A stretch of 45,246 nt of DNA, from the NCBI GenBank assembly GCA_964539035.1, contig CAZIHK010000010.1, positions 1-45,246 of the forward strand, given 5' to 3'. Below the pieces are notes generated by a model. That model did no database searches. It saw only the letters and a program-made list of their open reading frames with translations, and was not told the DNA's origin. Positions 5,908-24,566 of this stretch are shown here, piece by piece (position 1 is the stretch's first letter; the number at the start of each line of letters is the position of its first letter). The translations under genes and the position numbers were made by a program. Source of the DNA: an uncultured Candidatus Saccharibacteria bacterium (GTDB taxonomy: Bacteria > Patescibacteriota > Saccharimonadia > Saccharimonadales > CAIOMD01).

Positions 5908-5998
5908 GGAGAGGTCGCATAGTTGGTCTAGTGCGCCGCCTTGGAAAGGCGGTATAGGGGCAACTCTATCAAGGGTTCGAATCCCTTCCTCTCCGCCA
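5908..5998 (+). tRNA. tRNA-Ser (anticodon GGA), type II with long variable arm, CCA encoded
   Basis: Hand-folded cloverleaf: acceptor GGAGAGG/CCTCTCC, 3-bp D stem GCA/TGC, anticodon stem CCGCC/GGCGG with loop TTGGAAA, variable arm TATAGGGGCAACTCTATC, T arm AAGGG-TTCGAAT-CCCTT, discriminator G plus CCA. Confidence 0.9.
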
Positions 5999-6164: not shown

Positions 6165-6179
6165 CCTTCCTCTCCGCCA
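6165..6179 (+). repeat. Direct repeat of the tRNA-Ser 3' end (att-like)
   Basis: ccttcctctccgcca at 6165..6179 is identical to 5984..5998 (T-arm 3' strand, acceptor 3' strand and CCA). Confidence 0.6.
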
Positions 6180-6250: not shown

Positions 6251-6778
6251 TTACCGAATAGTGTCGAGCTCTTGTTTTAATGCTAGCCTTGCAAGGTTTC
6301 TAAATATTCCAGCGTAAACTTGAGATTCGTCATATCCTTCTCTAAATTCTAGCAACCAGCTATCCTCTAGCTCTTCTAGCCTTGACACCTTTAGTTGGGC
6401 ACCGCTTGTTGCGCTTTCCCATTCAAAATATTGGGCATCTTCTGAGCCAAATTCGGCAAAACCAGACATCCCGTTATGTAAATGTCGACGTGGTTCACCA
6501 CTGTATACCCTGCCACCAAAAGAGTTGGTCGCCATGTACACGCAATCGGGTTTGGCTATTTCTTCAAGGTTTGATATCTCATATTGATACATTCTATCTA
6601 TAGTTGGGAGGCCATTGCATAAACTTTGGGATATTTCGCTAACATTTGCAAAACTAATAACTATGCCAGGCCTAACTTTTTCAAAAAGTTCCTCAAAAGC
6701 AAGATCTTCGGTCTTAGCTACTTGGGATTCTCTCAATCCTTCATTTATTGCTTCTTTTTCGCTAATAGTCGTTTTCAT
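6251..6778 (-). CDS. Hypothetical protein, island family C copy 1 (175 aa)
   Basis: Paralog of 23690..24214. Shared motifs: S.SLCN.LP, PD.VY.AT.S.GGR...GEP.RH..HG.S..AEF...DA..FEW.SATSGA, ES.VYAGI..NLAR. Its start overlaps the upstream stop (TAATG). Confidence 0.65.
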   Translation of the reverse strand: MKTTISEKEAINEGLRESQVAKTEDLAFEELFEKVRPGIVISFANVSEISQSLCNGLPTIDRMYQYEISNLEEIAKPDCVYMATNSFGGRVYSGEPRRHLHNGMSGFAEFGSEDAQYFEWESATSGAQLKVSRLEELEDSWLLEFREGYDESQVYAGIFRNLARLALKQELDTIR

Positions 6779-8517: not shown

Positions 8518-9057
8518 TTATCTCCTAAATTTACTTAGATGTTGGAACACGACTGCTGTTTGGGCGGAGTCGTATAACGGATTATGAGTACCTCCAGCAT
8601 AATCTTCTGGGCTAACAGTAATCCCGTATTTTTTGGCGTAGCTGTCTACCGAAGTAGGATCTTCGTTTATTTGTAGCAAGCTTGCCGATAAATCAATAAG
8701 AGGATAGGGGCCATCAAAGTCACCGATATAACCTCTGTCATGCATGTCTTTGATAAGCCCAGACTCTACCGGTGTGGCCATGTGTGCGATAACCAATGAT
8801 CCTAAATTCTTGGCCTTTTCGATGTAATAGTCAGAAAAATCTTTCAATAAGGCATCGTAAGTGCCATGTGATATGTCAATCGACTCCATCTGAGGTAATA
8901 CATTTTGTGCAACCCACTCGTTAACTTCTTCTTCAATTGGGCATCGACCAATAAATCTATCGGTCTCGTCGCAGCCTTCGTAATATATTGCGGCAACCGC
9001 AAATGGTTGGCCCCAAAGACCGTTAGTCTCTGCGTCAAAGCTAAATATTTTTGTCAT
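8518..9057 (-). CDS. DEDDh-type (DnaQ/RNase T-like) 3'-5' exonuclease
   Basis: Exo I FSFDAETNGL (DxE), an internal acidic motif, and Exo III GTHNPLYDSAQTA (Hx4D). AAGGA SD. Stand-alone 179-aa domain. Confidence 0.7.
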   Translation of the reverse strand: MTKIFSFDAETNGLWGQPFAVAAIYYEGCDETDRFIGRCPIEEEVNEWVAQNVLPQMESIDISHGTYDALLKDFSDYYIEKAKNLGSLVIAHMATPVESGLIKDMHDRGYIGDFDGPYPLIDLSASLLQINEDPTSVDSYAKKYGITVSPEDYAGGTHNPLYDSAQTAVVFQHLSKFRR

Positions 9058-9080: not shown

Positions 9081-9148
9081 TTGGGCTTGTTAAAGCTCCA
9101 TAGGATAGGCAAGTATTGCCAAGCCTATGGAACCTTTAAGTGGTTCCG
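9081..9148. repeat. Conserved imperfect-palindrome element, copy b
   Basis: ttgggcttgttaaagctccatagg...cctatggaacctttaagtggttccg; see 7558..7625. It lies 24 nt upstream of the exonuclease start codon (minus strand). Confidence 0.6.
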
Positions 9149-9402: not shown

Positions 9403-9431
9403 TTGACAAATTACAAAATTACTGAATAATT
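9403..9431 (+). promoter_or_regulatory. Putative promoter of TrmB paralog 1
   Basis: TTGACA 9403..9408, 17-nt spacer, ATAATT 9426..9431. The ATG follows 6 nt later. Confidence 0.45.
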
Positions 9432-9437
9432 AAGGTT

Positions 9438-10169
9438 ATGGAATTAGACATTTGCCTAAAAGCCGGGTTAAACGAATCGCAAGCTGTTACTTATTTGCAC
9501 TTAATTGACAACGGGCCACTTACACCGCCAGAGATTGCCGAAGACATTAGCGAGTCTAGAACCAATGTTTATAACATTTTGAATCAACTGCAAAAATTTG
9601 GATTAGTAGAGACCTCACCTGGTAAAAAATCTTTATTTATGGCCAAGAACCCTAGCGCACTAAAACAGCTGGCTGTTTTTAGAGCCCAACAAGCCCAAAA
9701 AACATTACAAGAAATAAACGCCTTATTACCAAATATAATGTCGAAATTCCGCCTATCTCATGACCAGGCTGGGGTGGTGCATATGGATGGCGTAGATGCT
9801 TACGAAGACATTTTTGATGATATTTTTAGAGAAAAATCAGAAGTAACGATTATTAGAAGCGCCCAAGAAACTAACGATCCAGCAATACTTATCGAAATCG
9901 AAAAGCAAATCAAAAGATTGAATAAAGCTAAAATAAATTGCAAAATTATTGAGCCAAAACTTTTTGAAAAATACAATCATAATCTGGCCAATAATATATT
10001 CGTAAAATACTCGGACGACAAACCCATGCCATCCCAGTTGATACTTTATGGCAATAATTTAGTTTTTAACACTTTTGTCGATGGGGTTTCTTGTACGGTA
10101 ATAACTGACCCTAACATTGCAGAAACCCATAGATTTATATTTGAGTTTATGTGGAATAATCTAAAATAA
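9438..10169 (+). CDS. TrmB-family wHTH transcriptional regulator, paralog 1
   Basis: N-terminus GLNESQAVTYLHLIDNGPLTPPEIAEDISESRTNVYNILNQLQKFGLVE is the TrmB-type winged helix. ~245 aa, like the three other copies. Confidence 0.75.
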   Translation: MELDICLKAGLNESQAVTYLHLIDNGPLTPPEIAEDISESRTNVYNILNQLQKFGLVETSPGKKSLFMAKNPSALKQLAVFRAQQAQKTLQEINALLPNIMSKFRLSHDQAGVVHMDGVDAYEDIFDDIFREKSEVTIIRSAQETNDPAILIEIEKQIKRLNKAKINCKIIEPKLFEKYNHNLANNIFVKYSDDKPMPSQLILYGNNLVFNTFVDGVSCTVITDPNIAETHRFIFEFMWNNLK

Positions 10170-10295: not shown

Positions 10296-11117
10296 ATGAC
10301 AGATAGTCACATAATAACCACAGAAAAGCTGCTTCAAGACATAAAACCAGTCATTGATTATTACAAAAAACCGGAGGTGGCTGGTATTTTGTTATATGGT
10401 AGCTGGGGTAGGGGTGAGCAATTGCCGCATTCTGATGTAGATATTGCTGTTATTTGTAACAACAAACATGCGGTCGAAGAAATAGAAGACACTAACTGGG
10501 AAATTAACGATTATTTTGTAGAACCAACTAAGTACGATTACGAATATTTATTTACCCAATCTTTGCCAGAAAGGATGTTTCGTGAATTCGGCCATTTTTG
10601 GACAGAAGATACACGCTTTAATTGGCAACAATCCAAAATTCTTTATGACCAAAACGACATAGTTAAACAATTACTGGCTAAAAAAGCCTACCTACCAGCC
10701 AAAGAAGCAGAAGCTAACCTAAATGTAATTATTATTGTCATAGAAAGGTTGTTGAACTACCACTTGCCGAGATATGTAGATGCTGAAAAATACGTTGAAG
10801 CTCAAATACTATTGAATGGGCTGGTAAATCATGTGGTGCACTACATATACAACAAAAACGGGCTATTATTACCGTATTCATCAGCTTTATTTTATTGGTT
10901 TGATAAAAAAGATTTGCTGGGTAAGCAATCAGTATTGAATCTATTTAGTAATACCGGACTCAACAAAGATGAATGCTTACAGAGAATGAAATTATTTTGG
11001 GAAGTTTGCAATAAACTTGGGATTAAACTAAAAATACGAACCCAAAAAGAATATCTACAATACTTTTTTGAGCTCAACGGCACCAAAAAATGGGAAGATT
11101 ATTATGAAAAACAATAA
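10296..11117 (+). CDS. Nucleotidyltransferase-domain protein (Pol-beta superfamily, KNTase/ANT-like)
   Basis: GILLYGSWGRGEQLPHSDVDIAVI matches the GS-x9-12-DxD minimal NTase motif, followed by a helical C-terminal domain. Confidence 0.65.
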   Translation: MTDSHIITTEKLLQDIKPVIDYYKKPEVAGILLYGSWGRGEQLPHSDVDIAVICNNKHAVEEIEDTNWEINDYFVEPTKYDYEYLFTQSLPERMFREFGHFWTEDTRFNWQQSKILYDQNDIVKQLLAKKAYLPAKEAEANLNVIIIVIERLLNYHLPRYVDAEKYVEAQILLNGLVNHVVHYIYNKNGLLLPYSSALFYWFDKKDLLGKQSVLNLFSNTGLNKDECLQRMKLFWEVCNKLGIKLKIRTQKEYLQYFFELNGTKKWEDYYEKQ

Positions 11118-12027
11118 GGTTTTAATACTTACGGGCCCCGGTGGTTCCGGGAAATCTACAATTGCTGAGCTGTTGAATGATAAATACGGATATACTCTGA
11201 TTGATGGTGACCAATTAGATACCGAATTCTTCCCCGATGGTGGACAGTGGTTGCCGGAGAACAAATTGAGATTAGCGAATGCACATGACAAGATACTTAC
11301 CGCCACCAAAAAAGACTACCTCCTAGGTAAGAATATTGTTCTTGATTATATTATTTTTGGAGATTATTTGAATTTTTTTGATAAGTTTAAAAAAGAGTTT
11401 GGTAGTAATCTTGAGGTGAGAGTTTTACTACCCGGCGAAAAAGAAACCATTTTGCGAGATAAAGATAGGCAATGCTGGACAACTGGTGTCAAGCGCATAA
11501 AAACTGTACGAGAAGAGTTTATTAGTTTAAAGAATGGTATTGGAGAAGAGAACTTCATTGACACGTCAGATCAAACACCACAAGAAACGGCAGAGAATAT
11601 ATTTGAGACAACTACTAATTCGGCTAACCAAATTATGAAAAAGGTTGAATCAGCTGGCGGGGTAATAATTAACGAGTTCAGCGAAGTGGTAGTTGTATTT
11701 ACAGACACAAAAAGCTGGCAACTCCCAAAAGGTACGGTAGAAAAGGATGAAAGTTACTTTGATACTGCAACAAGAAAAATCAAAGAAGAAACGGGTTTAA
11801 AAAACCTTAATTATGTAAAAGAACTGCCTGCATATTCGAGGATATCCACACACGAGGATAACACCATTAGATATATTCATTATTTATTGTTCCGTACTAA
11901 AAAGCAAAATCTAACAGCAAGCGCGGAAGTGACAGAATGTAAGTGGGTACCAATTGAGGAGATCGAACACGAATTAACTCACCCAGAAGATAAACAATTT
12001 GTAAAAAATATTGTTAAAGAAATTTAA
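11104..12027 (+). CDS. Fusion protein: P-loop kinase-like domain plus NUDIX hydrolase domain
   Basis: Trimmed to the ATG at 11104 (MKNNKVLILTGPGGSGKSTIAELL, Walker A). The C-terminal NUDIX box is GTVEKDESYFDTATRKIKEETGL. It overlaps the upstream stop by 14 nt. Confidence 0.7.
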   Translation: MKNNKVLILTGPGGSGKSTIAELLNDKYGYTLIDGDQLDTEFFPDGGQWLPENKLRLANAHDKILTATKKDYLLGKNIVLDYIIFGDYLNFFDKFKKEFGSNLEVRVLLPGEKETILRDKDRQCWTTGVKRIKTVREEFISLKNGIGEENFIDTSDQTPQETAENIFETTTNSANQIMKKVESAGGVIINEFSEVVVVFTDTKSWQLPKGTVEKDESYFDTATRKIKEETGLKNLNYVKELPAYSRISTHEDNTIRYIHYLLFRTKKQNLTASAEVTECKWVPIEEIEHELTHPEDKQFVKNIVKEI

Positions 12028-12038
12028 CAAAATAAATC

Positions 12039-12563
12039 TTATTCCAAATAATCTAATACTTCTGCAATCAGTTTTATGGTTTTGGCATTATGGTCATTTT
12101 CGAACCATTTGTAAGAATAATCTCTTTCTATTAATAGGGCATCAACCTCGATATCTTGGGCCGGTTTGTAGTCCCACTTGTACATATCGCCGACCATTAA
12201 GGCATCGCTCTTTTTAAAACCGTGTGATGCAAGCAGCTCAATTATTCTTTCACTCTTGCCTTCGGGGTATTCTGGTGCAAATTGGATTTCATCCAATACG
12301 TCATCTAGGCCCATGCTGAGCACCATTTGCTTGCGGTTTACCAATGCCTCTTTGGGTGGTAATGGGCTGGTAGATAGCAAAACTCTTTTTATACCTAATT
12401 TGCCTATAGCCTCAAGCGTTTCATGCGCTATAGGTACGGCCTGCATCTCTGTAAAAGGGTCAGCTTCTTCGTCGGCATAGATATGCCAAGGCTCGGCGTA
12501 ATTTTTGTGTTTTGGCGGCTCCCAAAGAGTACCATCGCCATCAAAAAATATTATCTTTTTCAT
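12039..12563 (-). CDS. HAD-superfamily phosphatase
   Basis: Motif I IIFFDGDGTLW (DxDxT), motif II LLSTS, motif IV MVGDMYKWD. AAGGA SD. Confidence 0.7.
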   Translation of the reverse strand: MKKIIFFDGDGTLWEPPKHKNYAEPWHIYADEEADPFTEMQAVPIAHETLEAIGKLGIKRVLLSTSPLPPKEALVNRKQMVLSMGLDDVLDEIQFAPEYPEGKSERIIELLASHGFKKSDALMVGDMYKWDYKPAQDIEVDALLIERDYSYKWFENDHNAKTIKLIAEVLDYLE

Positions 12564-12591
12564 GTATTTATCCTTTTATAAGTAGGTTATA

Positions 12592-13695
12592 TTAGTTTTT
12601 TGCAAGTGCAGATTTATGCGCAGTAATGTACAAATCGCGACGGGCAGGGATACCAAGTTTTTTGTCTTCTTGGTCAGAGGCAAAATGTGGATCGTGCATG
12701 GTATCTATCATATTGCTGTTATCGTACTGGTCTTCTGTTATGCCGAGTCTTTGCATACTTAGATTAATACTATCCTCTACTACACCTCTAAAATCGGCCG
12801 TAAAATGATCTGTTGGTTCAAATGAGTCGCCAGGCTTCCAGTATGGATTGTCTAGATTTTCTACATAACCATCTTGGGCCCAACCAGGTAGTACTTGTTG
12901 CATTTTTTCGCTATCTGTAAAGCTGAATAAAAAATCCTGTTTTTCTATAGCGGATCGTAAAGTTAAACTCATAGTACTTATGTCTACATCACCATAATGT
13001 TCAATGGCTTTGCGTAAGGCATATTCTACGTAAGGCAAGCCATCTTGGCTATCTGGGCATGCAGTGGTGCCATATTGATTTGGCCTAGTAAGATGCATAA
13101 AGCCGATTATTGTTCGGCCATCTTGTGTTTTAAATTCGATATTTAAATCCCCGCAGTCAGCTAAACGGCAGGCTAGCACTGGGCAATCTTCTGCGTCAGA
13201 AAAAAAGGCGTTACAGCCATTTACTTGACGCCAACCTTCTGGGTTTGTAGAAGCACTGCCATTAGCTACATACATATCAAATTCGTCAGAAAAACCGACA
13301 TTATTGCCTGTCACGGCAACAATCATGGTTTGTTCTGGCTGAATGCCTAAGCAAGTAAGTGCATCTAAGGTGTTTTTTTCCGGGCAAAGGTTACCTTTTT
13401 CACGGTTTTGGCTAACGGTTAGATCTCTGCTAGCACATTCACCCAAGCAATAAGTGGTTGCCATTTTGACAGCCTCGGTAGGTGTTAAACCTTCGGTAAT
13501 GTATCGCGATTTAATTTCTTCGAAAGATGGGCAAGTTCTTGTCAGCGTACTACCGACAACATCAACCATGCTGATGGCAGATATAGTTTCGTCACCGACG
13601 GGGTATGTTACTAAGCCGGGCACTTCTATTACATCTCTGGGTTGTTCGTTGTTTGTGTTTTTCATTTTGTTATTTTCTTGGTTAAAGTTACGCAT
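12592..13695 (-). CDS. Hypothetical protein with divergent YfiH/LACC1 (DUF152, Cu-oxidase_4)-like core
   Basis: Trimmed to the ATG at 13695 (AAGGAG SD). CRLADCGDLNIEF...IIGFMHLTRPN resembles tADCxPv...aaHAGWRG, and the C-terminal HFASDQ...ARRDLYI resembles fFSyRRd..tGR. The first conserved His is not evident. Confidence 0.4.
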   Translation of the reverse strand: MRNFNQENNKMKNTNNEQPRDVIEVPGLVTYPVGDETISAISMVDVVGSTLTRTCPSFEEIKSRYITEGLTPTEAVKMATTYCLGECASRDLTVSQNREKGNLCPEKNTLDALTCLGIQPEQTMIVAVTGNNVGFSDEFDMYVANGSASTNPEGWRQVNGCNAFFSDAEDCPVLACRLADCGDLNIEFKTQDGRTIIGFMHLTRPNQYGTTACPDSQDGLPYVEYALRKAIEHYGDVDISTMSLTLRSAIEKQDFLFSFTDSEKMQQVLPGWAQDGYVENLDNPYWKPGDSFEPTDHFTADFRGVVEDSINLSMQRLGITEDQYDNSNMIDTMHDPHFASDQEDKKLGIPARRDLYITAHKSALAKN

Positions 13696-13733
13696 ATAAT
13701 AACTCCTTATGGTAAAAATGTCAATGTTGTTAC

Positions 13734-14465
13734 CTAAATTGATCTTATATAGTTTACGCAATCTGGGCAAAATCCAGCATCCATTTTGCGATGGTGTCGT
13801 AATTCGCTTGAAAGGCCAACAGCTTCTTCTGTGCTAATGGATTGGTGCATAGTACAAAAATTTGCACAGTGTCCTGCATAAATAGGCAAAAATTCACCTC
13901 GTGGGTCAGGGTTGGCTATTGTAGCTTGGTCCAAACCAACCATATGCCCGTACTCGTGTCTCGCGATATGTCTGGTTACATCACATTTTTGCTGTTCTGT
14001 AAGATTGTCTGACATGATGTATTCGTACAGAGACTGTACAGTTGTATTATCTAAATTTGCGCCCAACACGAAGTTATTTAAACCACCTTCGCCATCTGAT
14101 ATGGTCATACCTCTGGCTGTTAAAATAAAGTTATGGAAGTAGCCTTGTGGACCAGTTGAGGTCTGTATTAAGTGATACAAATTATCGAACAAAAGCTGAC
14201 CCTCTTGGACATTTGGGTTAGGATTGTAGATTGTAGAATCATCTAGCAGTTGTTCTAGTGTTGCATCGGTACCAACTATTTGGTCGTAATCGACATTAAC
14301 TTTTGGCATACGGCTCATCATTTGGACTACGTCATCTATGCCAAACATAGCTGCTTGGTATAGGTGAGGGTAGTAAAGTTCTAATTGACTATCAATAATC
14401 AATCTCATTTCTGGCACTTGTGGCTCTTGCTCGTAGTTTTGTGGGTATTTTGGCTCTTTATACAT
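13734..14465 (-). CDS. Zinc metallopeptidase, archaemetzincin (M54)-like
   Basis: ARHEYGHMVGL (HExxHxxG), then GHCANFCTM and CPDC, reminiscent of the archaemetzincin HExxHxxGx3Cx4CxM...CxxC signature with altered spacing. Confidence 0.55.
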   Translation of the reverse strand: MYKEPKYPQNYEQEPQVPEMRLIIDSQLELYYPHLYQAAMFGIDDVVQMMSRMPKVNVDYDQIVGTDATLEQLLDDSTIYNPNPNVQEGQLLFDNLYHLIQTSTGPQGYFHNFILTARGMTISDGEGGLNNFVLGANLDNTTVQSLYEYIMSDNLTEQQKCDVTRHIARHEYGHMVGLDQATIANPDPRGEFLPIYAGHCANFCTMHQSISTEEAVGLSSELRHHRKMDAGFCPDCVNYIRSI

Positions 14466-14467: not shown

Positions 14468-14950
14468 TTAATCAGCAATTCTTGATTTTAGATATTCTCT
14501 AATCTGTTCTGTGGTAAGATTTATTGCGCCATCTAATCTTGCCAGACCATTAATTTGATGGCTTACACCAATACCGGTGTCTAGATTGAAAGTCGCCACG
14601 CTTTCAAGCTCACCTTCTGGGGTATCTTTGATCTCCAAGTTAGCTACCTGTTCATTGCTTTCCGTATCTTCATATATAGACAGACACCCTACTGAAGTTT
14701 CACCTCGAAAAAAGGCATGGACTATAGGGCGGTCAAAATCATGCCAACTATGTGGTGTTATGTATAACTCTTCGCTCGTAGTTTTATCCTCTAGTTCAAT
14801 CGAAAAAGATTGAGAACTGTCCACTGAATTTATTAATTTCTCACTTTTTGACTTAATCAATGACAGCAATGTTTGGTAGCTATTATTGATTTTTTCTTCA
14901 TTCGAGACAGTCTTTTTTTCTGCTTTAAATGTATTTCCTAAATTTTCCAT
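14468..14950 (-). CDS. Hypothetical protein (160 aa)
   Basis: ORF tightly packed in operon 2 (2-nt gap to the next gene). No family recognised. Confidence 0.6.
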   Translation of the reverse strand: MENLGNTFKAEKKTVSNEEKINNSYQTLLSLIKSKSEKLINSVDSSQSFSIELEDKTTSEELYITPHSWHDFDRPIVHAFFRGETSVGCLSIYEDTESNEQVANLEIKDTPEGELESVATFNLDTGIGVSHQINGLARLDGAINLTTEQIREYLKSRIAD

Positions 14951-14969: not shown

Positions 14970-15455
14970 TTAATTTCTTTTAGCTTGCAGTGAGCTACTT
15001 GCGTAAACTCCGTGAGTTTCTTCGTATTCTCTGGTGAGTATTACATCACCTAATAGTTCAATTTCTTCTATTCTGATAACAGGGAAGTCAACTTCCTCGT
15101 AGCTTGGCTCTCGGACGATTTTTGATGAGCGGCCAACTAAGTCTTCTAGAGCTTGCATTTCGTGGTCAGCAAGAATTGATTCTTGTGGCAGATATACCTG
15201 AGCTGTTTCTGGTATGTGGTCTATTAATCGTTCGGGTAAATCATTTGGAATGGCTATTTGTTCTTGAAGTTTTTGAGCTTGTGCAAAGATGTAGGCTATT
15301 TTAGTACAAAATATTTCGTACATATTGCGGCTAGCAAAGTTTCTCGCATAAAATGTAGACTCAATGCCATTGTCTAATGACTTAAGTTCGTTTTCTAATA
15401 GGGCAAGAATATGCATATCACCATGTTCTGTGCCTTCCTCGTAAGTCGTTTTCAC
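14970..15455 (-). CDS. Hypothetical protein (161 aa), first gene of operon 2
   Basis: GTG start at 15455 with ACGGAG SD. No family recognised. Confidence 0.6.
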   Translation of the reverse strand: MKTTYEEGTEHGDMHILALLENELKSLDNGIESTFYARNFASRNMYEIFCTKIAYIFAQAQKLQEQIAIPNDLPERLIDHIPETAQVYLPQESILADHEMQALEDLVGRSSKIVREPSYEEVDFPVIRIEEIELLGDVILTREYEETHGVYASSSLQAKRN

Positions 15456-15481: not shown

Positions 15482-15510
15482 AATATAGCATATTGTCAAT
15501 TATATGTCAA
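15482..15510 (-). promoter_or_regulatory. Putative promoter for operon 2 (minus strand)
   Basis: Minus-strand TTGACA (rc 15505..15510), 17 nt, TATATT (rc 15482..15487). A second TGTCAAT heptamer lies at 15494..15500. Confidence 0.45.
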
Positions 15511-15563
15511 TACATAATTAACAATAATATTAAACAGTTATAATAATAATTGTAAAAGTAAGA

Positions 15564-15598: not shown

Positions 15599-16378
15599 AT
15601 GACTACAGACCAGCTAGTAGAAGTCGGCCTAACTCTGTCGCAGGCAAAAGCTTACCTTGCACTTTTAAAACATGGTGCTATGACCCCCACGGTATTAGCA
15701 GGTTTAATCGACGAAAGTAGAACAAATACCTATGCAGTGCTGGACAGATTGGTGGGTCTTAAGCTAGCAGAGCAAGTAAAAGGAACCAAAAAAGTTTATA
15801 AAGCCGCTAATCCAACGCATCTAGAAGAATATGTTAGACATCAAAAAGAAGTAGCCGAAGAAAAACAAGAAAAAGCTCGCCGACTAATGCCGGGTTTAAT
15901 GGATATGTATTTTAAAACGGATGCAGAGCCAGGAATTAGGTTTTTTAGGGGTAGGGAAGAATTGAAAAAGATTTTTATGGAGCAGTTAGAAACGCGGCAG
16001 ACGATTTACTTAATAAGATCTTCGGCCGACATCAAATACTACGATTTTGATTTTGTTAGCAATATAAGGTTGGCGGCTGCAAAATATGGCATCCAGCGCT
16101 ATGGGATATGCCCAGACATTAAAGAGACAAATCCAACAAGGCAAGACGACAAAAGAAGCAATTTAGATAGAACCTGGGTAGATAAAGACGATTATAATGC
16201 CGAGGTAGAGTGGACTATATTTGGCGATAAAGTATCGGCAATATCGTTTGGCAAAGAAGGGGTGGGGATGATTATTGAGAGCCCACAAATTGCCGAAAGC
16301 ATGCGCCAACTTTTTAATTTAGCCAAGGCCGGGGCAAAGGCTCGTTACCCTAAACCAAAATGGGGATATAAAAGCTAG
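15599..16378 (+). CDS. TrmB-family wHTH transcriptional regulator, paralog 2
   Basis: GLTLSQAKAYLALLKHGAMTPTVLAGLIDESRTNTYAVLDRLVGLKLAE. Confidence 0.75.
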   Translation: MTTDQLVEVGLTLSQAKAYLALLKHGAMTPTVLAGLIDESRTNTYAVLDRLVGLKLAEQVKGTKKVYKAANPTHLEEYVRHQKEVAEEKQEKARRLMPGLMDMYFKTDAEPGIRFFRGREELKKIFMEQLETRQTIYLIRSSADIKYYDFDFVSNIRLAAAKYGIQRYGICPDIKETNPTRQDDKRSNLDRTWVDKDDYNAEVEWTIFGDKVSAISFGKEGVGMIIESPQIAESMRQLFNLAKAGAKARYPKPKWGYKS

Positions 16379-16386: not shown

Positions 16387-17292
16387 CTAAAGAGCTTTGA
16401 ACAAAAGCTCTGTTTTAGTAATTATCGGTTTATTTAACCATTCTATACCAATATCAAAGTCTTTTTGATAGCTTTTGTCGTAAAGTTCAGTGATCTCTTT
16501 TTTCAAATTCACTAAATTACGGTCTCTCGCTTGCCACTTACTGTTCTCGAATATTTTATATCCCTTAGAGGCAAAAACATCCAATTGCAGATTTCGTAGT
16601 TTTGAAATAACAATAGATTCTATTGTCGTAACAATAAGTTGATGGCTTAAGACTTCTAAATCATCTATAGTTTTATCATTTTGCTGTAATTTTAGAATTC
16701 TTGCCAATTCTTGAGAATAACTATCAATGCTGATTCTTTCTAGTCTCTTAGTCTTTTCGCTTAAATCCTCGACGAATTCTAACAACTCTTTAGTTGGCTC
16801 AATCACTAGCTCTATCTGTTCTGCAGAGATTATAAGTTTATCTCGCTGGTCTTTGGCTAAATTGGCTAACTCATCCTTTTGAGCCCCCAATTTGTAAAAA
16901 GCAAGTTGTTTGCGCCCTGCAACATATTTTAGCGGGAAGCCAGTAATCTCGTCGCCACTGATAATAGCGTCAGTATACAAACCATAATCGACTCGGTAAT
17001 CTAAGGGCTTTTTTATTATAAAAATTTTACCTACCTCTTCTTTGTTTCGTGATGTTTCGCTTTCGCTAAAATGTTTATTTTCGCCCATAGCCCACCTTAA
17101 TGAATGGGCTAAGTCTGTAGAAATAGTGGCTCTACCTTCTCGAGCCGTAAAACCTGCATCTTTTATGTTTTCGGCGTTTGCTAAAGAGGCTGTACCATGT
17201 AGGAAATACTTAACACTGGCTAGAGATTCATCCCCATCGGATGAAATCAATCGTTCGTCATAAAGTATTTCGTGATTTTTAGATTGCTCCAT
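16387..17292 (-). CDS. Hypothetical protein (301 aa); N-terminal domain with HGT motif (possible ART-fold), helical C-terminus
   Basis: YFLHGTASLANAENIKDAGFTAREGRATISTDLAHSLRWA resembles the hHGT....I...GF...R..v.lS motif of Tpt1/KptA- and PARP-type NAD-binding folds. By-eye only. Confidence 0.3.
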   Translation of the reverse strand: MEQSKNHEILYDERLISSDGDESLASVKYFLHGTASLANAENIKDAGFTAREGRATISTDLAHSLRWAMGENKHFSESETSRNKEEVGKIFIIKKPLDYRVDYGLYTDAIISGDEITGFPLKYVAGRKQLAFYKLGAQKDELANLAKDQRDKLIISAEQIELVIEPTKELLEFVEDLSEKTKRLERISIDSYSQELARILKLQQNDKTIDDLEVLSHQLIVTTIESIVISKLRNLQLDVFASKGYKIFENSKWQARDRNLVNLKKEITELYDKSYQKDFDIGIEWLNKPIITKTELLFKAL

Positions 17293-17342
17293 ACAAGTTA
17301 GCTCTTACGATATTTAACAGTTTAATTTAATATTTTATTTAT

Positions 17343-17585
17343 CTAAATTATCTTGATTTTTTGTATAGCCAAAGTAGATAGCAAAAGCGTACTTGGCAGG
17401 ATCAAAGCGCTAAACCAAGGTTTGCTGGCATTTAGCCAGGCAAGAAATAGTCCTGCAAACAGATAGGTAATCACAAAAATTATTGATTTTCGGGTTTTAC
17501 TAAGCTCCCATGCCTTATCGGCAGTAACTTTTTTGTTGCGCAATTCTATTTTTGCTATGCGCTTTTCGAGCTCAATATTATTCAT
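17343..17585 (-). CDS. Small membrane protein (80 aa): N-terminal helix plus two TM segments
   Basis: ELEKRIAKIELRNKKVTADKAWE followed by two hydrophobic stretches. Confidence 0.55.
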   Translation of the reverse strand: MNNIELEKRIAKIELRNKKVTADKAWELSKTRKSIIFVITYLFAGLFLAWLNASKPWFSALILPSTLLLSTLAIQKIKII

Positions 17586-17603
17586 ACTATAATGTTTTGT
17601 CTG

Positions 17604-18320
17604 TTAACTGTTATTAAAAAAATTGGAATAGTCTGATTCAATATCAATTTCTTGTAATTTTAGATTAGATGTTTTAACCCCAAAAACATCATCATAAGAG
17701 TTGTCATAACAACCATCCAATAAATTATCCATACTAAATAAGTAGCAAGATAATTTTTTGCAAATTTCATATTGTTTTTGTTCGTAATCTATACTAGAAT
17801 CGTTTTTTTCATCAATGATTGGTGGTCCCATTGTGAAATCAGAAAAATCATTGTAAGCAGAAAAATCATGGTAAGCTATAAACATATTAGCTATATCTGG
17901 GTCGCAAAAACCTACGGGCTGGCTAAGCTGGCTAAAAAAGACTGGCCCACCAAAGACTGTTGATATCATTAAATCAAATGGGGTTCTGGTTTCTTGTGGA
18001 GCTAGAATTATGTCCTGATTGGTGGCCATATTAGTGTTTGGCGAAACTAAACACACATTAGCTTCACAATATTCTTCATCAGCAAACGTTACCAAAGCTA
18101 ACTGCTTTAAGATGTTTCGTTTGTCCACCGAGCAATTTTTACAATCGGGGTGTACGTCAACATAGCAAATATCTCCAAAAATAGGAGGATGCAAAAGGGG
18201 CGAAGGATTTAAATCTAGCGACTGCCAACTGTCATTGGCGGGAGTAAACAAACCATCTTGCTTAACCCATCTATAGCCGTCTAGCTCCCATTTCTCATTT
18301 GCGTTAAATTGTTCTTTCAT
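17604..18320 (-). CDS. Hypothetical protein, island family A copy 1 (238 aa)
   Basis: Shares WELDGYRW..QdG.F.PA...WQSLDL.P, GD.CY...HPDC, AN..LVS, IIL.P.ETR.PFD, VFF.QLS.PVGF with 18329..19000 and 19734..20564. Confidence 0.65.
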   Translation of the reverse strand: MKEQFNANEKWELDGYRWVKQDGLFTPANDSWQSLDLNPSPLLHPPIFGDICYVDVHPDCKNCSVDKRNILKQLALVTFADEEYCEANVCLVSPNTNMATNQDIILAPQETRTPFDLMISTVFGGPVFFSQLSQPVGFCDPDIANMFIAYHDFSAYNDFSDFTMGPPIIDEKNDSSIDYEQKQYEICKKLSCYLFSMDNLLDGCYDNSYDDVFGVKTSNLKLQEIDIESDYSNFFNNS

Positions 18321-18328
18321 AAAAGAGG

Positions 18329-19000
18329 CTATATTCCATTATCATCGTTAAATATTTGTTTGCTAACACAATAACAACTTAGTTTACTTACAATATCGCA
18401 ATGCTTTGATATTAGTTCTTGTCGCGAGTCCTTATGGTCTAGAATAGGGTTGCTTCTTTTTTCTTTAGGAAAGTCAGGTGCAAATCCTAGAGTACTTAGG
18501 GCCAATTTATCAATATTTTCTTGATCAATATATCCGACTGGCATACTTAGTTGATTATAATAAACTGTTCCACAACTTATCAGTTCGATTGCAATATCAA
18601 AAGGAATTCTTGCATCTTTTGAGTCTAGAATTACATCTCGGGAAACAGCCATATCTGTTTGATTAGTGGCTAGCATGAAGTTTGCCAAACCTTCTTCTTC
18701 ATAAACCATAAGAACACAACCAAGTTGTTTTTCGCTGACTTGGCACTTACTTAATAAGCAATCTGGGTGTTGGCTCAGATAGCAAAAATCACCCGGCCAG
18801 GGGACTTCTGTAATTGATACTGGCGATAAATCCAAGGGTTGCCATTCTTTGTCGGCTGGTACAAAAATACCGTTTTGGCGCATCCAGCGGTAGCCGTCTT
18901 CTGGCTCCCATCTCTCTATTAATTCATGATTATTATTTTTCGCTACATCATCGTTGTTTATATTGTAATTTTCCAAATTATTAGCATTATATTTTTCCAT
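18329..19000 (-). CDS. Hypothetical protein, island family A copy 2 (223 aa)
   Basis: Family A motifs as above. AAGGA SD. Confidence 0.65.
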   Translation of the reverse strand: MEKYNANNLENYNINNDDVAKNNNHELIERWEPEDGYRWMRQNGIFVPADKEWQPLDLSPVSITEVPWPGDFCYLSQHPDCLLSKCQVSEKQLGCVLMVYEEEGLANFMLATNQTDMAVSRDVILDSKDARIPFDIAIELISCGTVYYNQLSMPVGYIDQENIDKLALSTLGFAPDFPKEKRSNPILDHKDSRQELISKHCDIVSKLSCYCVSKQIFNDDNGI

Positions 19001-19014
19001 GGCTAAGTCCTTAA

Positions 19015-19722
19015 TTATTTAGCAGAATCGTTTTCATTTTCGATAATGATTTTGGGGTGTGGTAAATCCCAACCAGTGTGGCCTGTCCAATCCATATCGA
19101 TTCGATGAGAGTGCGTGTTTTTAGGTTCTATAAGTGTATTTATCCATGATACTTTTTCACATAAATCATGTGCGCAATCATGGCAAATAATAGCTGTACA
19201 TTGATCTAGCCTGCCTTTTTTAACCCAATCGCTGGTATCTAATCTGTCTTCTTCGAATAACCATTCTTGTGGAAACGGATCGACGAACATGCTATAACCA
19301 CCAGCCATGTTAACTATCAAAGCGTTATTGTACTGTACGCTACCTTTTTTAAACTGATTGGGAAATACAGGCTCTAGCTCTTTTTGACAAACAAAACATT
19401 GGTGAATATTTTCGTTTATCAATTCCGGGTTTTCTTGGTGGTGTTCATGTTCACAACCACAATAACTACCAGTAATGGCGTCAATTCTTTTTTCATCAAG
19501 TTCTTCGCGATAGGCGTTACTTTGTTCGTTGTAGATTCCTACCACAGTACTCCAAAACAATTCATTTTCTTTCGTGTCTTCCATCAACGTATCGCTATTC
19601 CACATTTCTTCGGCGGCATCGTAATCAGGGGCTAAATCACCGTCAATAATACATTTTAGCCAAAAAGCTTCACTCTCGGCTTCTATATAGTCATATCTTT
19701 GACTGTCTTTAAATTGTTCCAT
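19015..19722 (-). CDS. Hypothetical Cys/His-rich protein, island family B copy 1 (235 aa)
   Basis: Paralog of 20579..21289. Motifs: PDY..A.EMW.SD, HQCFVCQKELEPVFP, QYNNALI..GGY.MF.DP, AIICHDCAHDLC. AAGGAG SD. Confidence 0.65.
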   Translation of the reverse strand: MEQFKDSQRYDYIEAESEAFWLKCIIDGDLAPDYDAAEEMWNSDTLMEDTKENELFWSTVVGIYNEQSNAYREELDEKRIDAITGSYCGCEHEHHQENPELINENIHQCFVCQKELEPVFPNQFKKGSVQYNNALIVNMAGGYSMFVDPFPQEWLFEEDRLDTSDWVKKGRLDQCTAIICHDCAHDLCEKVSWINTLIEPKNTHSHRIDMDWTGHTGWDLPHPKIIIENENDSAK

Positions 19723-19733
19723 CTCTTATCTCC

Positions 19734-20564
19734 TTATTCTATTATCGATTTATTATCAATTTCGTTGTCGGCATCAAACAAAGTTCTGTTTAAACAGTAG
19801 CAGTATAACTTTTTCATTACATCCATTCGATGCAGTATTCTATCCCGTCGTGGATCTTCGTGGTCTATTATGGGTTCACCTCTTTTTTCTTTCGGAAAAT
19901 CAAGCTCACCACCCATGTAAGTGCTCTCATTTATTTTGTCGATAATATCTTGATTGGTATATCCTACTGGTTTACTCAGTTGATCAAAAAATACAGGGCC
20001 GCAAACTTGTTCAATCATCACATCAAAAGGTATTCTGGTTTCGTCGGGGCTAAGGATAACATCATCCGGACCCGCCATATCAAGTTTTCTTGACACAAGC
20101 ATAACATTTGCAAACTCTCCTTCCTCATCAACTAGATGTAAATAGGCAAGTTGCTTTTCATCGGTATGGCAATCTGGCATTTTACAACCCGGGTGCTGGG
20201 AAAGGTAACAAAAATCACCAGGCCAAGGGGTTTCCGTGGGTGAAAGAGGTGATAAATCTAATGATTGCCAATACTCATCGGCCGGTACAAACCTGCCATT
20301 TTGAAGCACCCACTTATAACCGTCATCTGCTTGCCATTTGTCTAGCGAATCAAGTTCTACTGTTTTTTTTGGTTTAAGCCTAAAGTTGGGCAACATATCC
20401 TCGGGTTTTTCTAGCAATTGCTCAGCTCTCTCTAGCATACCCAAATATTGATGCGCATCCTTGTAACCTTCGGCTTCGCCAGTTGCGATGAAACCTTTCA
20501 ATCTATCAGATTCTGTTTGAGCTTCATCCAAACTGTATCTTTGAATATCGTTATTATTTTCCAT
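19734..20564 (-). CDS. Hypothetical protein, island family A copy 3 with extra N-terminal module (276 aa)
   Basis: Family A core plus an N-terminal ~45 aa (QRYSLDEAQTESDRLKGFIATGEAEGYKDAH) shared with family B and the 117-aa ORF. AAGGAG SD. Confidence 0.65.
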   Translation of the reverse strand: MENNNDIQRYSLDEAQTESDRLKGFIATGEAEGYKDAHQYLGMLERAEQLLEKPEDMLPNFRLKPKKTVELDSLDKWQADDGYKWVLQNGRFVPADEYWQSLDLSPLSPTETPWPGDFCYLSQHPGCKMPDCHTDEKQLAYLHLVDEEGEFANVMLVSRKLDMAGPDDVILSPDETRIPFDVMIEQVCGPVFFDQLSKPVGYTNQDIIDKINESTYMGGELDFPKEKRGEPIIDHEDPRRDRILHRMDVMKKLYCYCLNRTLFDADNEIDNKSIIE

Positions 20565-20578
20565 AATTTTCTCCTTAA

Positions 20579-21289
20579 TTATTCTTCTGGAGAACCATCA
20601 AAAATTTCATATTCACCGTCAATCTCATCATTGTTCGATAGACCACAACCCTTATGTTCATCCAAATTATTTTCGTATCCAAAAGTATCCGAATAATCAG
20701 GGTTTATGAATCTGTCCATCCATGGTATTTGTTTGCAAAGATCATGCGCACAGTCCTGGCATATGATTGCCGAATACTCGTTTTCTATCAAGCCATTATT
20801 TAAGATTTCCTTGGGTTCCATATCTTCTATCAATATTGGATCAATATACATGCCATAACCTCCATCGATGTCGATTATTAAAGCATTTTCGTATTGTGTG
20901 CACTTTTTATTGAAATGAAAAACATCAGGAAACACAGGTATGAGCTCTGTGTGGCAAGCAAAACAATGGTGATAACTTTCATGCAGTTTATCACGATGTT
21001 CCTTAAGCCAATTAGCCTGATACTCATTTATATATTTATCACGTAGGTCAATGACTGTTCTCCAAAAAAATGCATTTTGATCGGTATCTTCTAGTAGTCG
21101 ATCACTGCCCCACATTTCATCAGCTGATTCGTAGTCAGGTGAAAAACCACTGTCAACCATACTCCTTAGCAATACTGCTTCATCTTCGGCTTGCTCTTTG
21201 CCAAGTCTGGCCGGATACTTATTTTCTTTCTGAGGGCTTTTAATATTGTTAATATCGTTATCCCAATTGTCTTCATAATTCTTTTTCAT
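20579..21289 (-). CDS. Hypothetical Cys/His-rich protein, island family B copy 2 (236 aa)
   Basis: HHCFACHTELIPVFP, QYENALI..GGYGMY.DP, AIICQDCAHDLC. AAGGAG SD. Confidence 0.65.
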   Translation of the reverse strand: MKKNYEDNWDNDINNIKSPQKENKYPARLGKEQAEDEAVLLRSMVDSGFSPDYESADEMWGSDRLLEDTDQNAFFWRTVIDLRDKYINEYQANWLKEHRDKLHESYHHCFACHTELIPVFPDVFHFNKKCTQYENALIIDIDGGYGMYIDPILIEDMEPKEILNNGLIENEYSAIICQDCAHDLCKQIPWMDRFINPDYSDTFGYENNLDEHKGCGLSNNDEIDGEYEIFDGSPEE

Positions 21290-21342
21290 CTTATCGTCTC
21301 CTTGTATTTAAAAAATTTGCGATAATTAGCGCTACTGTTCTC

Positions 21343-21696
21343 TTAGCCTTCTGGGCCATAATCAATTTGGAACTCTTTTCCGATACCGTGGTGTTGAATA
21401 TCGATTTTTTCCCAAATACCAAGATCATCTTGCTCTGGTGCTGGGGTTTCTATTACGCCAGTGAAAACGTCCCAGTCGTATTCATTCCAGTTCCATTCTT
21501 TCCACATGTGCTTATCCATTTCTTGCATCACTTTTTCGAAGCAAGAAGCCCAGCCGGCATCAACGATTCTTAAAAATTTAGCATGTGCTGATTTATAATC
21601 TTCGGCATAGTTATTCTTTACACAATCTTTAATTGCTTCAGCTTCTAGCTGTGCGGCTTCTATCCCTAATCTTTGGCAATCTATATATTCTTTCAT
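21343..21696 (-). CDS. Hypothetical protein (117 aa) carrying the shared N-terminal module
   Basis: CQRLGIEAAQLEAEAIKDCVKNNYAEDYKSAH aligns with the N-termini of 19015..19722, 19734..20564 and 20579..21289. W-rich C-terminus. Confidence 0.6.
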   Translation of the reverse strand: MKEYIDCQRLGIEAAQLEAEAIKDCVKNNYAEDYKSAHAKFLRIVDAGWASCFEKVMQEMDKHMWKEWNWNEYDWDVFTGVIETPAPEQDDLGIWEKIDIQHHGIGKEFQIDYGPEG

Positions 21697-21717
21697 TTTA
21701 ATTAACCTCTCGTGGCC

Positions 21718-22542
21718 TTAATTATTATTTAAAAATCGGTGTAATTTTTGTTCGGTTTCACTGTCAACCAAATTATCTTTAATGATTATGTATTCTGCCT
21801 TAAAGCCATAGCCTCTTAAAATATCCAGTACTTCTTCTTGTGAATCCTTGTTATTTTGCAGGTCTTCTTGCAATAGCTCGAATATTTCAGACTTATTATC
21901 GTCCAACCAAAGAATTGGACTGTTTCCTATATATTGAACGAGTAGCATTGTTTTAATACTTTTGTTAAATGTTGATTCACCTATCACGCTAACGGGTTGG
22001 ACGTCGGTAAGCGGAACTTTTGAAATTTTTGTTCCATTTTCATTGTCTTCCATGCAATCTGATTCATAAATATAGTCGTCATCTAGGTCATGAAATACCT
22101 CTGCCCTAGTGAATCTAGCTGAACTATTAATTACTAAATCATTTGCTGAAGGTACAATTATAGGTAGTTGAACCATAGCGCTTCTGGCCTCGGGATCTCG
22201 TGGTGAAAATAGATAGTTAAATAAATAGCTTGGGTGAAAATGTATGTCTATCACAACATCAAAATTATCTGGATCTATGTCATTATCGTATAAGTCTGAT
22301 TGATAAATACTACCTAAAAACATTCCTTTGATATGATTGGTACCACAAGCACTAATACTTTCAGTATTTCCGCTTTTTCTATCTTTTACAACGAAAAAAC
22401 CACTCTCATTACCTTCTTCTTTGTCAGTGAAGTTTGTACAAAAATCCCAACTACGAATAAATTCTCTCGAAGTAATTATTTGCTTTAACTCCTCAGCTGT
22501 TAGTTCCTCGTTGTTGTGAGATAACATCTCATGATTTCCCAT
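21718..22542 (-). CDS. Hypothetical protein (274 aa) with possible JAB/MPN (JAMM)-like motif; first gene of operon 3
   Basis: NESGFFVV ... IDIHFHPSYLFNYLFSPRD approximates E...HxH-x(7-10)-SxxD of JAMM/RadC-type metallopeptidases (spacing is 9, not 7). AAGGA SD. Confidence 0.35.
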   Translation of the reverse strand: MGNHEMLSHNNEELTAEELKQIITSREFIRSWDFCTNFTDKEEGNESGFFVVKDRKSGNTESISACGTNHIKGMFLGSIYQSDLYDNDIDPDNFDVVIDIHFHPSYLFNYLFSPRDPEARSAMVQLPIIVPSANDLVINSSARFTRAEVFHDLDDDYIYESDCMEDNENGTKISKVPLTDVQPVSVIGESTFNKSIKTMLLVQYIGNSPILWLDDNKSEIFELLQEDLQNNKDSQEEVLDILRGYGFKAEYIIIKDNLVDSETEQKLHRFLNNN

Positions 22543-23689: not shown

Positions 23690-24214
23690 TTAGACTTCTA
23701 AGCTTACTTCTTGGCTAACAACCCATCTTGCAAGGTTAGCATAGATACCTGCATATACATTTGATTCATGCTCACCTTCTGCGAACTGAATCCTCCAGGT
23801 ACCGTCACTATTCTTTGTGGCTCTTATGGTTGCACCACTAGTGGCACTTTGCCATTCGAAAGATTCAGCATCATCAGGACTAAACTCGGCATAGGTAGAA
23901 ATACCATGGCCAATATGACGTGTTGGCTCACCAACCCAATCTCTTCCACCCATAGAATGAGTTGCAATATATACTCTGTCTGGCGATGCTATCTGATCTG
24001 GGTTTGTTATACCGTAATCTCTGGCTCTTTCTTCTTGTAGCGGCAAAGAATTGCATAAGCTATGAGATATCGTTACAACGTTTTGCCAATTTACGTCCAA
24101 TCCGTCTGGATGCATTTGTTGAGCGAATAAAAATGGTGATTCATATTCCTCACTTTCGTCACGGTATTCACCCAACCCTTCGGCGATTACAGTTTGTTTA
24201 TCTAAGTAATTCAT
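23690..24214 (-). CDS. Hypothetical protein, island family C copy 2 (174 aa)
   Basis: Paralog of 6251..6778 (motifs listed there). AAGGAG SD. Monocistronic, between the terminator and the divergent promoter region. Confidence 0.65.
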   Translation of the reverse strand: MNYLDKQTVIAEGLGEYRDESEEYESPFLFAQQMHPDGLDVNWQNVVTISHSLCNSLPLQEERARDYGITNPDQIASPDRVYIATHSMGGRDWVGEPTRHIGHGISTYAEFSPDDAESFEWQSATSGATIRATKNSDGTWRIQFAEGEHESNVYAGIYANLARWVVSQEVSLEV

Positions 24215-24259
24215 TATTACTTTTCTCCTTATTTGGTATTACTCTATAAATTATTTTAT

Positions 24260-24559: not shown

Positions 24560-24566
24560 GTGTGAG

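Follow-up and report, generated by a model that had tools for sequence, protein, structure and literature searches.

A probable pair of convergent TrmB-associated gene units, one with a kinase-NUDIX fusion and one with a divergent YfiH/PgeF-fold protein, in a Saccharibacteria chromosome

In a 45,246-nucleotide stretch of DNA from an uncultured Candidatus Saccharibacteria bacterium (hereafter the window), we analyzed a cluster of genes that encode a nucleotidyltransferase (NTase), a fusion of a P-loop kinase with a NUDIX domain, a HAD phosphatase, a YfiH-like protein and a putative zinc metallopeptidase. The window DNA is identical to contig JBAXUI010000001.1 of the NCBI metagenome-assembled genome (MAG) GCA_037129745.1, and it is chromosomal DNA of the Patescibacteria (candidate phyla radiation [CPR]) that carries housekeeping genes for phosphoglucose isomerase, a MacB-type ABC transporter, ArgRS, DnaG, sigma-70, and PolA. 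The cluster lies inside a region, from about 6.2 to 26.9 kb, that consists mostly of open reading frames (ORFs) without family assignment, along with four paralogous TrmB-family regulators. The original prediction, made from the letters of the sequence, had suggested that the cluster could be one nucleotide-based conflict or signaling system. Our analysis favors a different view, namely, that the locus probably represents two independent, convergent TrmB-associated units in an orphan-rich, regulator-rich variable stretch and not one pathway.

Every ORF named in the original prediction is present where it was placed. On the plus strand, TrmB paralogue 1 (TrmB1, 9438 to 10169; Pfam TrmB, 4e-13) is followed in the same direction, after 126 nucleotides (nt), by the NTase gene (10296 to 11117), which in turn shares a 14-nt overlap (11104 to 11117) with the kinase-NUDIX ORF (kinase domain, 11104 to 11619; NUDIX domain, 11620 to 12027). 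The minus-strand operon diverges from TrmB paralogue 2 (TrmB2, 15599 to 16378, plus strand; Pfam TrmB, 9e-12) and contains, from its first gene to its last, an orphan ORF of 161 amino acids (aa) (14970 to 15455), a 160-aa orphan ORF (14468 to 14950), the gene of a 243-aa protein with metallopeptidase-like motifs (13734 to 14465), the gene of the 367-aa YfiH-like protein (12592 to 13695), and that of a small HAD-family phosphatase (12039 to 12563). The two orphan ORFs had no match in Pfam, NCBIfam, PADLOC, or PHROGs, and the 160-aa ORF is without a homologue in the related loci that we compared. The plus- and minus-strand units converge, with their stop codons 11 nt apart; the window scan placed no terminator-like site between these stop codons, although such sites are enriched in the window (13 versus 4.7). 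Promoter-like sites with 11 of 12 matches lie upstream of TrmB1 (9403 to 9430) and, with a TG, before the 161-aa ORF (15510 to 15482, minus strand).

Gene neighborhoods elsewhere are what separate the two units. In 26 genomes with a close homologue of the kinase, tblastn across flanks of up to 10 kb detected no homologue of the NTase, the HAD phosphatase, the 367-aa protein, the 243-aa protein, or TrmB1, and in none of the neighborhoods examined is a gene of one unit conserved together with a gene of the other. By the standard that the original prediction had set for itself, a conserved neighborhood, the joint system is not borne out, as the 26 kinase loci, the NTase homologue, and the YfiH-like loci share no common neighborhood; the YfiH-like loci have instead an orthologue of TrmB2 and an M15_4 peptidase. 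The minus-strand operon is itself a composite of two smaller modules, TrmB2 with the YfiH-like gene and the 243-aa gene with the HAD gene, because these are conserved separately: the 243-aa and HAD genes are adjacent again at the related locus L011 (51 and 53% identity, respectively), under a TrmB3-type regulator (79% identical to TrmB3 of the window), and no YfiH-like gene is present at L011.

One could still imagine, as the original prediction did, that the NTase, the kinase-NUDIX protein, the HAD phosphatase, and the YfiH-like protein act together on one nucleotide-derived molecule, a signal or adduct that they would make, modify, and break down in the manner of anti-phage-like conflict or signaling systems. 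Four enzyme classes do lie within 4 kb, in an orphan-rich region beside a tRNA gene with an att-like repeat, and PADLOC gives weak matches, to PDC-S09 for the NTase (9.6e-9) and to PDC-S07 for the NUDIX domain (1.2e-7). However, these matches cover the generic minimal NTase and NUDIX folds, no effector or sensor component was found, no phage or plasmid matches were seen, and the kinase is a ubiquitous, conserved Patescibacteria gene that occurs in housekeeping contexts. PADLOC and PHROGs yielded generic NTase and NUDIX domain matches and no recognized set of components of nucleotide-based systems such as the CBASS-like or Hailong types, and the HalB model of NCBIfam scored 22.5 bits against a cut-off of 190. 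Together with the failure of cross-unit gene pairs to recur, this makes joint signaling highly improbable, and the cluster should not be carried forward as a nucleotide-signaling or defense locus.

One product of the plus-strand unit is the fusion protein. It is encoded by a single uninterrupted ORF of 307 aa, with an N-terminal Walker-A kinase domain followed by a NUDIX domain (Pfam NUDIX, 7e-18; 65 bits against a cut-off of 21.1), which confirms the domain composition read from the sequence earlier. The identical 307-aa protein occurs on seven contigs, and the four places shown represent four independent data sets (NCBI MAG, Logan, ENA, and JGI), so that the fusion is real and no assembly artifact. 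It is also as uncommon as had been claimed: a search of 5.8 billion protein clusters gave 139 matches, and the window protein is the only one of them to span both the kinase and the NUDIX domain. The 119 kinase homologues listed among these matches share 52 to 71% identity with it, come from across the Patescibacteria, and are, all but four, stand-alone proteins of about 170 aa. The capture of a NUDIX domain by this pan-Patescibacteria kinase is specific to this species.

Homologues, PDB matches, and profile alignment identify the kinase domain as a T4 polynucleotide kinase (PNK)-like P-loop hydroxyl kinase. In the PDB it matched the uncharacterized protein BH3686 (2bdt; 2e-12), its best solved relative, and T4 PNK (8e-5), and hhalign aligned it with T4 PseT over the whole kinase domain (probability 95%, E 3.4e-8), placing D36 on D35 and R122 on R126. 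G11 to K17 (Walker A), D36 (the general-base Asp, expected some 20 residues beyond the Lys of the P-loop), and R122 (the lid Arg) are invariant in the family, and these are the residues looked for in a PNK-like hydroxyl kinase. In contrast to T4 PNK, the window kinase has no attached HAD phosphatase domain and is fused to a NUDIX domain, and its family is a conserved stand-alone protein of Patescibacteria. Weak matches to chloramphenicol phosphotransferase (CPT), gluconokinase, and APS kinase were seen as well, that to CPT being full-length. The NUDIX domain was closest to the Ap4A hydrolase of Aquifex (3i7u), which it matched over its full length (9.4e-14), and it also matched Dcp2-type enzymes (about 1e-6), and the NCBIfam model for RNA pyrophosphohydrolase (9e-8). 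It has the full NUDIX fold and a recognizable Nudix box in common with the Ap4A hydrolase and RppH/Dcp2-type enzymes but differs from them in its position C-terminal to a kinase and in the Nudix box itself, which reads GTVEKDESYFDTATRKIKEETGL; here the RE position is RK, so that Lys replaces the first Glu of REUXEE, and GX5EX7REUXEEXGU is otherwise present.

Kinase genes of this family have varied neighbors elsewhere, the commonest being SecA, which lies upstream in six loci, and the closest homologue (P0002, 71% identity) is a stand-alone protein with Fpg, holA, and rpsT as neighbors. A NUDIX gene sits directly downstream of the kinase gene at two loci (L022, 75 nt; L019, 15 nt) and farther off at two others (L013 and L029), which lends mild support to a functional link between the kinase and a NUDIX enzyme. 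In other organisms, members of the family carry a GrpB domain at the N terminus (3e-38), a SET domain at the C terminus, or another P-loop kinase (P0034 [L053], P0069, and P0051). These varied fusions, with NUDIX, GrpB, SET, or a second kinase, may be hints to the function of a conserved, uncharacterized, and probably essential kinase.

For the fusion, the most plausible role would be one in which phosphorylation of a hydroxyl group, 5'-OH or another, is coupled to pyrophosphohydrolysis at a 5' end or of a nucleotide. That both domains would generate 5'-monophosphate ends is put forward here as a hypothesis only. A broader version of this idea would turn the cluster into an RNA or DNA end-healing kit, in which the kinase converts 5'-OH to 5'-P, the NUDIX domain converts 5'-ppp or capped ends to 5'-P, the HAD phosphatase takes off 3'-P, and the NTase adds nucleotides. 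The likeness of the kinase profile to T4 PNK at 95%, with the catalytic Asp and Arg conserved, and the NUDIX matches to Ap4A hydrolase and to Dcp2/RppH-type decapping enzymes are consistent with such a kit, as are the joining of two 5'-monophosphate-generating activities in one polypeptide and the translational coupling of the NTase ORF to the fusion. Yet the kinase architecture is found in small-molecule hydroxyl kinases, too, as its weak CPT, gluconokinase, and APS-kinase matches illustrate, and a ligase or Hen1-like partner is missing. The HAD protein resembles the T4 PNK phosphatase domain only in the generic DxDxT region (12.8% probability), and we rejected it as a relative of that domain; its gene lies in the minus-strand operon and is found next to that of the 243-aa protein at another locus. 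The pairing of NTase and kinase, too, is not conserved. We therefore regard an end-healing kit as unlikely.

The NTase encoded just upstream of the fusion belongs to the Pol-beta superfamily, as its GS...DVD motif had indicated, with Pfam matches to Polbeta (6.5e-9) and NTP_transf_2 (2.1e-8). It combines this domain with a C-terminal helical, DUF4037-like domain in a kanamycin NTase (KNTase)-like architecture, and DUF4037 was found in six of the nine family members. The family is nearly orphan, as a search of 1.84 billion representative proteins yielded only three relatives of full length; the closest homologue (P0142) is flanked by a methyltransferase gene and an unrelated small ORF, with no kinase gene beside it. 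A metagenome scan with the NTase alignment returned generic NTase-domain matches only and hence no neighborhood information. We also compared the NTase with the GrpB domain that is fused to the kinase in P0034 and found no similarity, so that the fusion of GrpB to the kinase hints only loosely at a coupling between NTase and kinase.

Among PDB entries, the NTase family profile matched kanamycin NTase best (2.5e-6, N-terminal domain only), and aminoglycoside and lincosamide NTases were also among the best matches. The protein shares with ANT(4') and with NTP_transf_2+DUF4037 proteins an N-terminal Pol-beta domain with hG[GS] and DxD motifs and a helical C-terminal domain. From this resemblance, and from the weak full-length CPT match of the kinase, one could argue that the plus-strand unit is a xenobiotic or antibiotic resistance unit, with a KNTase-like NTase and a CPT-like kinase under the control of a TrmB-type sensor. 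The NTase does not, however, group firmly with aminoglycoside or lincosamide resistance enzymes, a possibility that the original prediction had raised against itself: the resemblance to ANT(4') is weak, the alignment is limited to the N-terminal NTase domain, and scores with the NCBIfam resistance models are far under their cut-offs (ANT_4p_I, 20 bits against 350; ANT_9, 17 against 340). The kinase, moreover, is a conserved core gene of Patescibacteria rather than an accessory resistance gene, and a resistance unit is in our view very unlikely. What remains as the plus-strand unit is, in gene order, TrmB1, a near-orphan, KNTase-like NTase, and the kinase-NUDIX protein.

At the core of the minus-strand unit, which would be an operon controlled from the divergent TrmB2 gene, we place the YfiH-like protein. 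The 367-aa product had no match in Pfam or NCBIfam (E <= 0.1), the family models PF02578 (Cu-oxidase_4, DUF152) and PgeF included, none in PADLOC or PHROGs, in a phmmer search of the PDB, or in a profile search of the PDB. The AF2 model built from an alignment of the 18 family members reached a pLDDT of 89.6 and a pTM of 0.87, and when this model was used with Foldseek, the top 18 PDB matches were all DUF152/YfiH/YlmD/PgeF structures (E 1e-10 to 6e-7, probability 1.00, target-normalized TM-scores of 0.55 to 0.68), followed by more distant Cys-His amidohydrolases (CheD and NTAN1). With hhalign, the family matched a nine-member PgeF alignment, built from plasmid records, at an E value of 4.8e-5 and a probability of 68%; with the E. 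coli YfiH sequence by itself, the comparison gave no significant result (0.17% probability). The earlier guess of a YfiH/LACC1 relative, drawn from an ADC...H...RRD pattern, was thus right for the fold (Foldseek, E 1e-10) and for the core motif (hhalign, 4.8e-5). We conclude that the protein is a divergent, DUF152-like member of the alpha/beta/alpha YfiH/PgeF/LACC1 fold, most likely a Cys-His hydrolase, and that its family is an unannotated, deeply divergent branch of PgeF/LACC1 outside current family models. NCBI places the start of the gene at 13665, 10 codons downstream, for a 357-aa product. A promoter-like site (13696 to 13724, minus strand; 11 of 12 matches) abuts the ATG at 13695; it fits the start at 13665 and suggests that the minus-strand operon has a promoter inside it.

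In PgeF, catalysis involves a C107/H124/D89 triad and D106; the nucleophile (Cys107) and the oxyanion hole (A105/D106) sit on one turn, and UDP is contacted by Y227, R228, W127, and R128 (PMC8844914; PMC12280929). Our hhalign mapping places A179 on A105, D180-C181 on D106-C107, H201 on H124, I250 on I157, and S340 on S226, so that the RLADC181, GFxH201, AI250, and S340 elements of the new family correspond to TADC107, AAH124, AI157, and S226. A179, D180, C181, and H201, which make up the A-D-C turn and the His expected some 17 to 20 residues beyond the Cys, are invariant in all 18 members. Because the ADC turn and the His124 equivalent are retained, the YfiH-like protein is most likely a Cys181-His201 amidohydrolase, in which the A179-D180 turn would supply the oxyanion hole as in PgeF.

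In other respects, the family departs from PgeF. Its His-Cys-His set is incomplete, as H201 is the sole invariant His and the first His (E. coli H71) is not matched, Q69-x-H71 falling in a gap of the query; hhalign places PgeF Asp89, the third residue of the triad and required for editing, near G146, while motif spacing suggests the invariant N162 instead. The UDP-MurNAc residues of PgeF (W127, R128, Y227, R228, and R235) are not kept, since S-Y-R-R becomes S-S-x-[EQ]-x, no Trp follows H201, and neither Y227-R228-R229 nor W127 is conserved. With the first His and the UDP-binding Tyr-Arg of PgeF lacking, the substrate probably differs from UDP-MurNAc-aminoacyl, and the invariant R204 and R353 might act as stand-ins for the UDP-binding residues. 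The YfiH-like proteins have, furthermore, internal insertions (NPEGW..GFNAFF and PGW..NPxW) and an additional helical domain at the N terminus, about 120 aa long, with four Cys residues (C55, C83, C87, and C104), all of them invariant in the family alongside C181 and H201.

Genomic partners differ as well. PgeF is accompanied by rluD in the Gammaproteobacteria examined, whereas the YfiH-like gene is accompanied by a TrmB regulator and a zinc peptidase. We compared seven independent YfiH-like neighborhoods, i.e., that of the window and those at loci L005, L006, L007, L009/L010, L049/L050, and L051. A TrmB gene adjoins the YfiH-like gene in all seven and is divergent from it in the relatives, and the regulators of the relatives are closest to TrmB2 (L005, 59%; L006, 41%; L007, 33%; L009, 33%; L049, 40%; L051, 44%). 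In four of the seven (L005, L006, L049, and L051), a Peptidase_M15_4 gene of about 200 aa lies immediately downstream of the YfiH-like gene. We searched the window for an M15_4 peptidase, and it is absent. By inspection, neither the M15_4 peptidases nor the window proteins have an N-terminal hydrophobic signal. The module is located between dnaG-rpoD and polA in the relatives, and the window copy lies about 17 kb upstream of dnaG.

Two side observations concern this module. Inverted repeats with the half-site TATTGACA / TGTCAATA were found in the TrmB2 intergenic region of the window (15491 to 15526) and in the orthologous intergenic region of L005 (7544 to 7591); a repeat of the TATTGACA type could be an operator, but its position coincides in part with -35-like hexamers of the two divergent promoters. 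In addition, carotenoid genes stand directly beside the TrmB/YfiH-like module at L006 (1944 to 6082) and L049 (790 to 4937), and this set, which consists of a polyprenyl synthase, a CrtI-like desaturase, a phytoene synthase, and a lycopene cyclase, is unusual for reduced CPR genomes.

In the place of an M15_4 peptidase, the window has the 243-aa protein, which carries the motif HEYGHMVGL-x20-HCx3CxM-x26-CxxC and belongs to a family of three members (the window protein and two homologues), all with HE[YF]GHMxGL...GHCx3-4CTM...GFCxxC. The published consensus of archaemetzincins is HEXXHXXGXXHCX4CXMX17CXXC (PMC3427221). The 243-aa family resembles archaemetzincin (M54) in its extended HExxHxxG...HCx(3-4)CxM...CxxC pattern with four Cys residues and differs in that about 20 extra residues separate the Gly from the third His and that 24 to 26 residues, instead of 17, precede CxxC. 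One homologue gave subthreshold hidden Markov model (HMM) matches to Peptidase_M54 (0.0097) and Zincin_1 (0.0033), the window protein itself gave no significant HMM match (the archaemetzincin 3zvs in the PDB, E 0.48), and the AF2 model from the three-sequence alignment was unusable (pLDDT 37.7). Of the HExxH/Cys-rich, metzincin-like protease that had been predicted, the motif stands, statistical support for it is weak, and no significant match to the M54 HMM or to archaemetzincin in the PDB emerged; we refer to the protein as a putative archaemetzincin-like zinc metallopeptidase.

The HAD phosphatase scores 26.7 bits with Pfam Hydrolase, just over the cut-off of 26.4, and also matches HAD_2, and all four HAD motifs are present (DGDGT with D8, D10, and T12; LLSTS with S64/T65; K103; GDMYKWD with G125-D126...D131) and kept in the L011 orthologue, which is 53% identical. 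The phosphatase that the original prediction had read here is upheld by these motifs and by the Pfam score.

Folds, domain identities, gene neighborhoods, and the rarity of the fusion are matters of observation; the substrates and the control by TrmB are inferred. For the minus-strand unit, the YfiH-like protein, TrmB2, and a signal-less zinc peptidase (M15_4 in the relatives, archaemetzincin-like here) may together carry out the cytoplasmic processing of a peptide-bearing metabolite. The recurrence of a cytoplasmic zinc peptidase as partner suggests such a metabolite, for example, a muropeptide or a peptidoglycan precursor, and the HAD phosphatase could provide an accessory step. Taken further, the conserved set of a regulator of the TrmB2 type, a YfiH-fold hydrolase with its four Cys residues, and a zinc peptidase that has no signal might constitute an unrecognized cytoplasmic pathway of episymbiotic Patescibacteria that edits or salvages peptide-bearing cell-wall building blocks (e.g., host-derived muropeptides), with the Cys4 domain sensing redox state or metal, a Cys-His(-Asn) site diverged from that of PgeF, and an archaemetzincin-like peptidase and a HAD phosphatase recruited in this species. 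We advance this pathway as a tentative proposal with a rather small chance of being correct in full.

A related idea would extend cell-wall salvage to the whole cluster. The recycling pathway of Pseudomonas comprises the kinase AmgK, the nucleotidyltransferase MurU, and the HAD phosphatase MupP. By analogy, the cluster might form a pathway for salvage or editing of peptidoglycan sugars, with counterparts of these three enzymes to which a peptidase and an amidase resembling PgeF have been added. The cluster does encode each of these classes (kinase, NTase, HAD phosphatase, PgeF-fold enzyme, and zinc peptidase), and the YfiH-like homologues pair with an M15_4 peptidase of the cell-wall type. The folds of the kinase and the NTase, however, are unlike those of AmgK (APH-type) and MurU (a sugar-nucleotidyltransferase), the YfiH-like family is without the Tyr-Arg UDP-binding residues of PgeF, and nothing is conserved across the two units. 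A slim chance is all that we would give to a single peptidoglycan-sugar pathway, and we return to two separate units as the more probable arrangement.

Several points weigh against the interpretation of the two units given here. A missing conserved linkage is no proof that the two units lack a functional relationship in this organism. Promoter-like sites show no enrichment in the window over shuffled sequence. The YfiH-like neighborhoods are few (seven) and from one clade, and their synteny near dnaG-rpoD...polA may partly reflect ancestry; the family of the peptidase partner, furthermore, differs between genomes. The metallopeptidase identity of the 243-aa protein is putative, at the level of a motif, and the mapping of catalytic residues onto PgeF, from profile alignment at 68% probability and motif spacing, is likewise provisional. 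The activity of the NUDIX domain is uncertain, since the first Glu of REUXEE is replaced by Lys (RKIKEE).

What the locus contributes is two moderately new parts, a divergent YfiH/PgeF-fold family and a species-specific kinase-NUDIX fusion, and nothing known is overturned. The chemistry of the PgeF/LACC1 superfamily is debated, with amidase, purine nucleoside phosphorylase, and citrulline-cleaving activities under discussion. A new branch with an incomplete triad and a Cys4 domain could help to tell which residues serve which activity and could inform studies of how symbionts with reduced genomes handle cell-wall precursors.

The four TrmB paralogues of the window lie within 16 kb (9438 to 10169, 15599 to 16378, 22855 to 23601, and 24558 to 25316) and are 26 to 32% identical to each other. 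They are like other TrmB-family regulators in their N-terminal TrmB winged-helix domain and in having genes that diverge from presumed target operons; they differ in that the window proteins, of about 245 to 260 aa, have a C-terminal domain without a match to a library model. Each paralogue stands at the head of an operon of unassigned ORFs or is transcribed away from one. A literature search turned up nothing on TrmB in Patescibacteria or Saccharibacteria.

TrmB3 diverges from a nine-gene operon of unassigned ORFs (16387 to 22542, minus strand), in which proteins of 238, 223, and 276 aa (40 to 53% identity) and of 235 and 236 aa (35%) form two groups of paralogues. A 174-aa ORF (23690 to 24214) and a 175-aa ORF (6251 to 6778) are likewise paralogues of each other (43% identity). 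Near the second of these, a tRNA-Ser(GGA) gene (5908 to 5998) ends in 15 nt, CCTTCCTCTCCGCCA, that recur exactly 167 nt downstream (6165 to 6179), with 0.03 chance matches expected. The repeat, which lies at the left edge of the orphan-rich region, looks like an att site left behind by integration or excision; no integrase was seen, and we rejected a phage or plasmid origin of the region, which has no phage or plasmid matches.

A 179-aa ORF at 8518 to 9057 (minus strand) has DEDDh-exonuclease-like motifs (FDAETNGL...HNPLYDS), no Pfam match, and weak PHROG matches to RNase H and to a polymerase exonuclease subunit. Another 179-aa ORF, at 31065 to 31604, shows no BLAST similarity to it and occupies the position that RNase_T has in relatives. 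Finally, two hairpins, at 24257 to 24307 (21 nt, 95% complementary) and 9092 to 9136 (21 nt, 81% complementary), have the motif AAAGCTCC-TAGG in common and sit just upstream of minus-strand genes, the former before the 174-aa ORF and the latter before the exonuclease-like 179-aa ORF.

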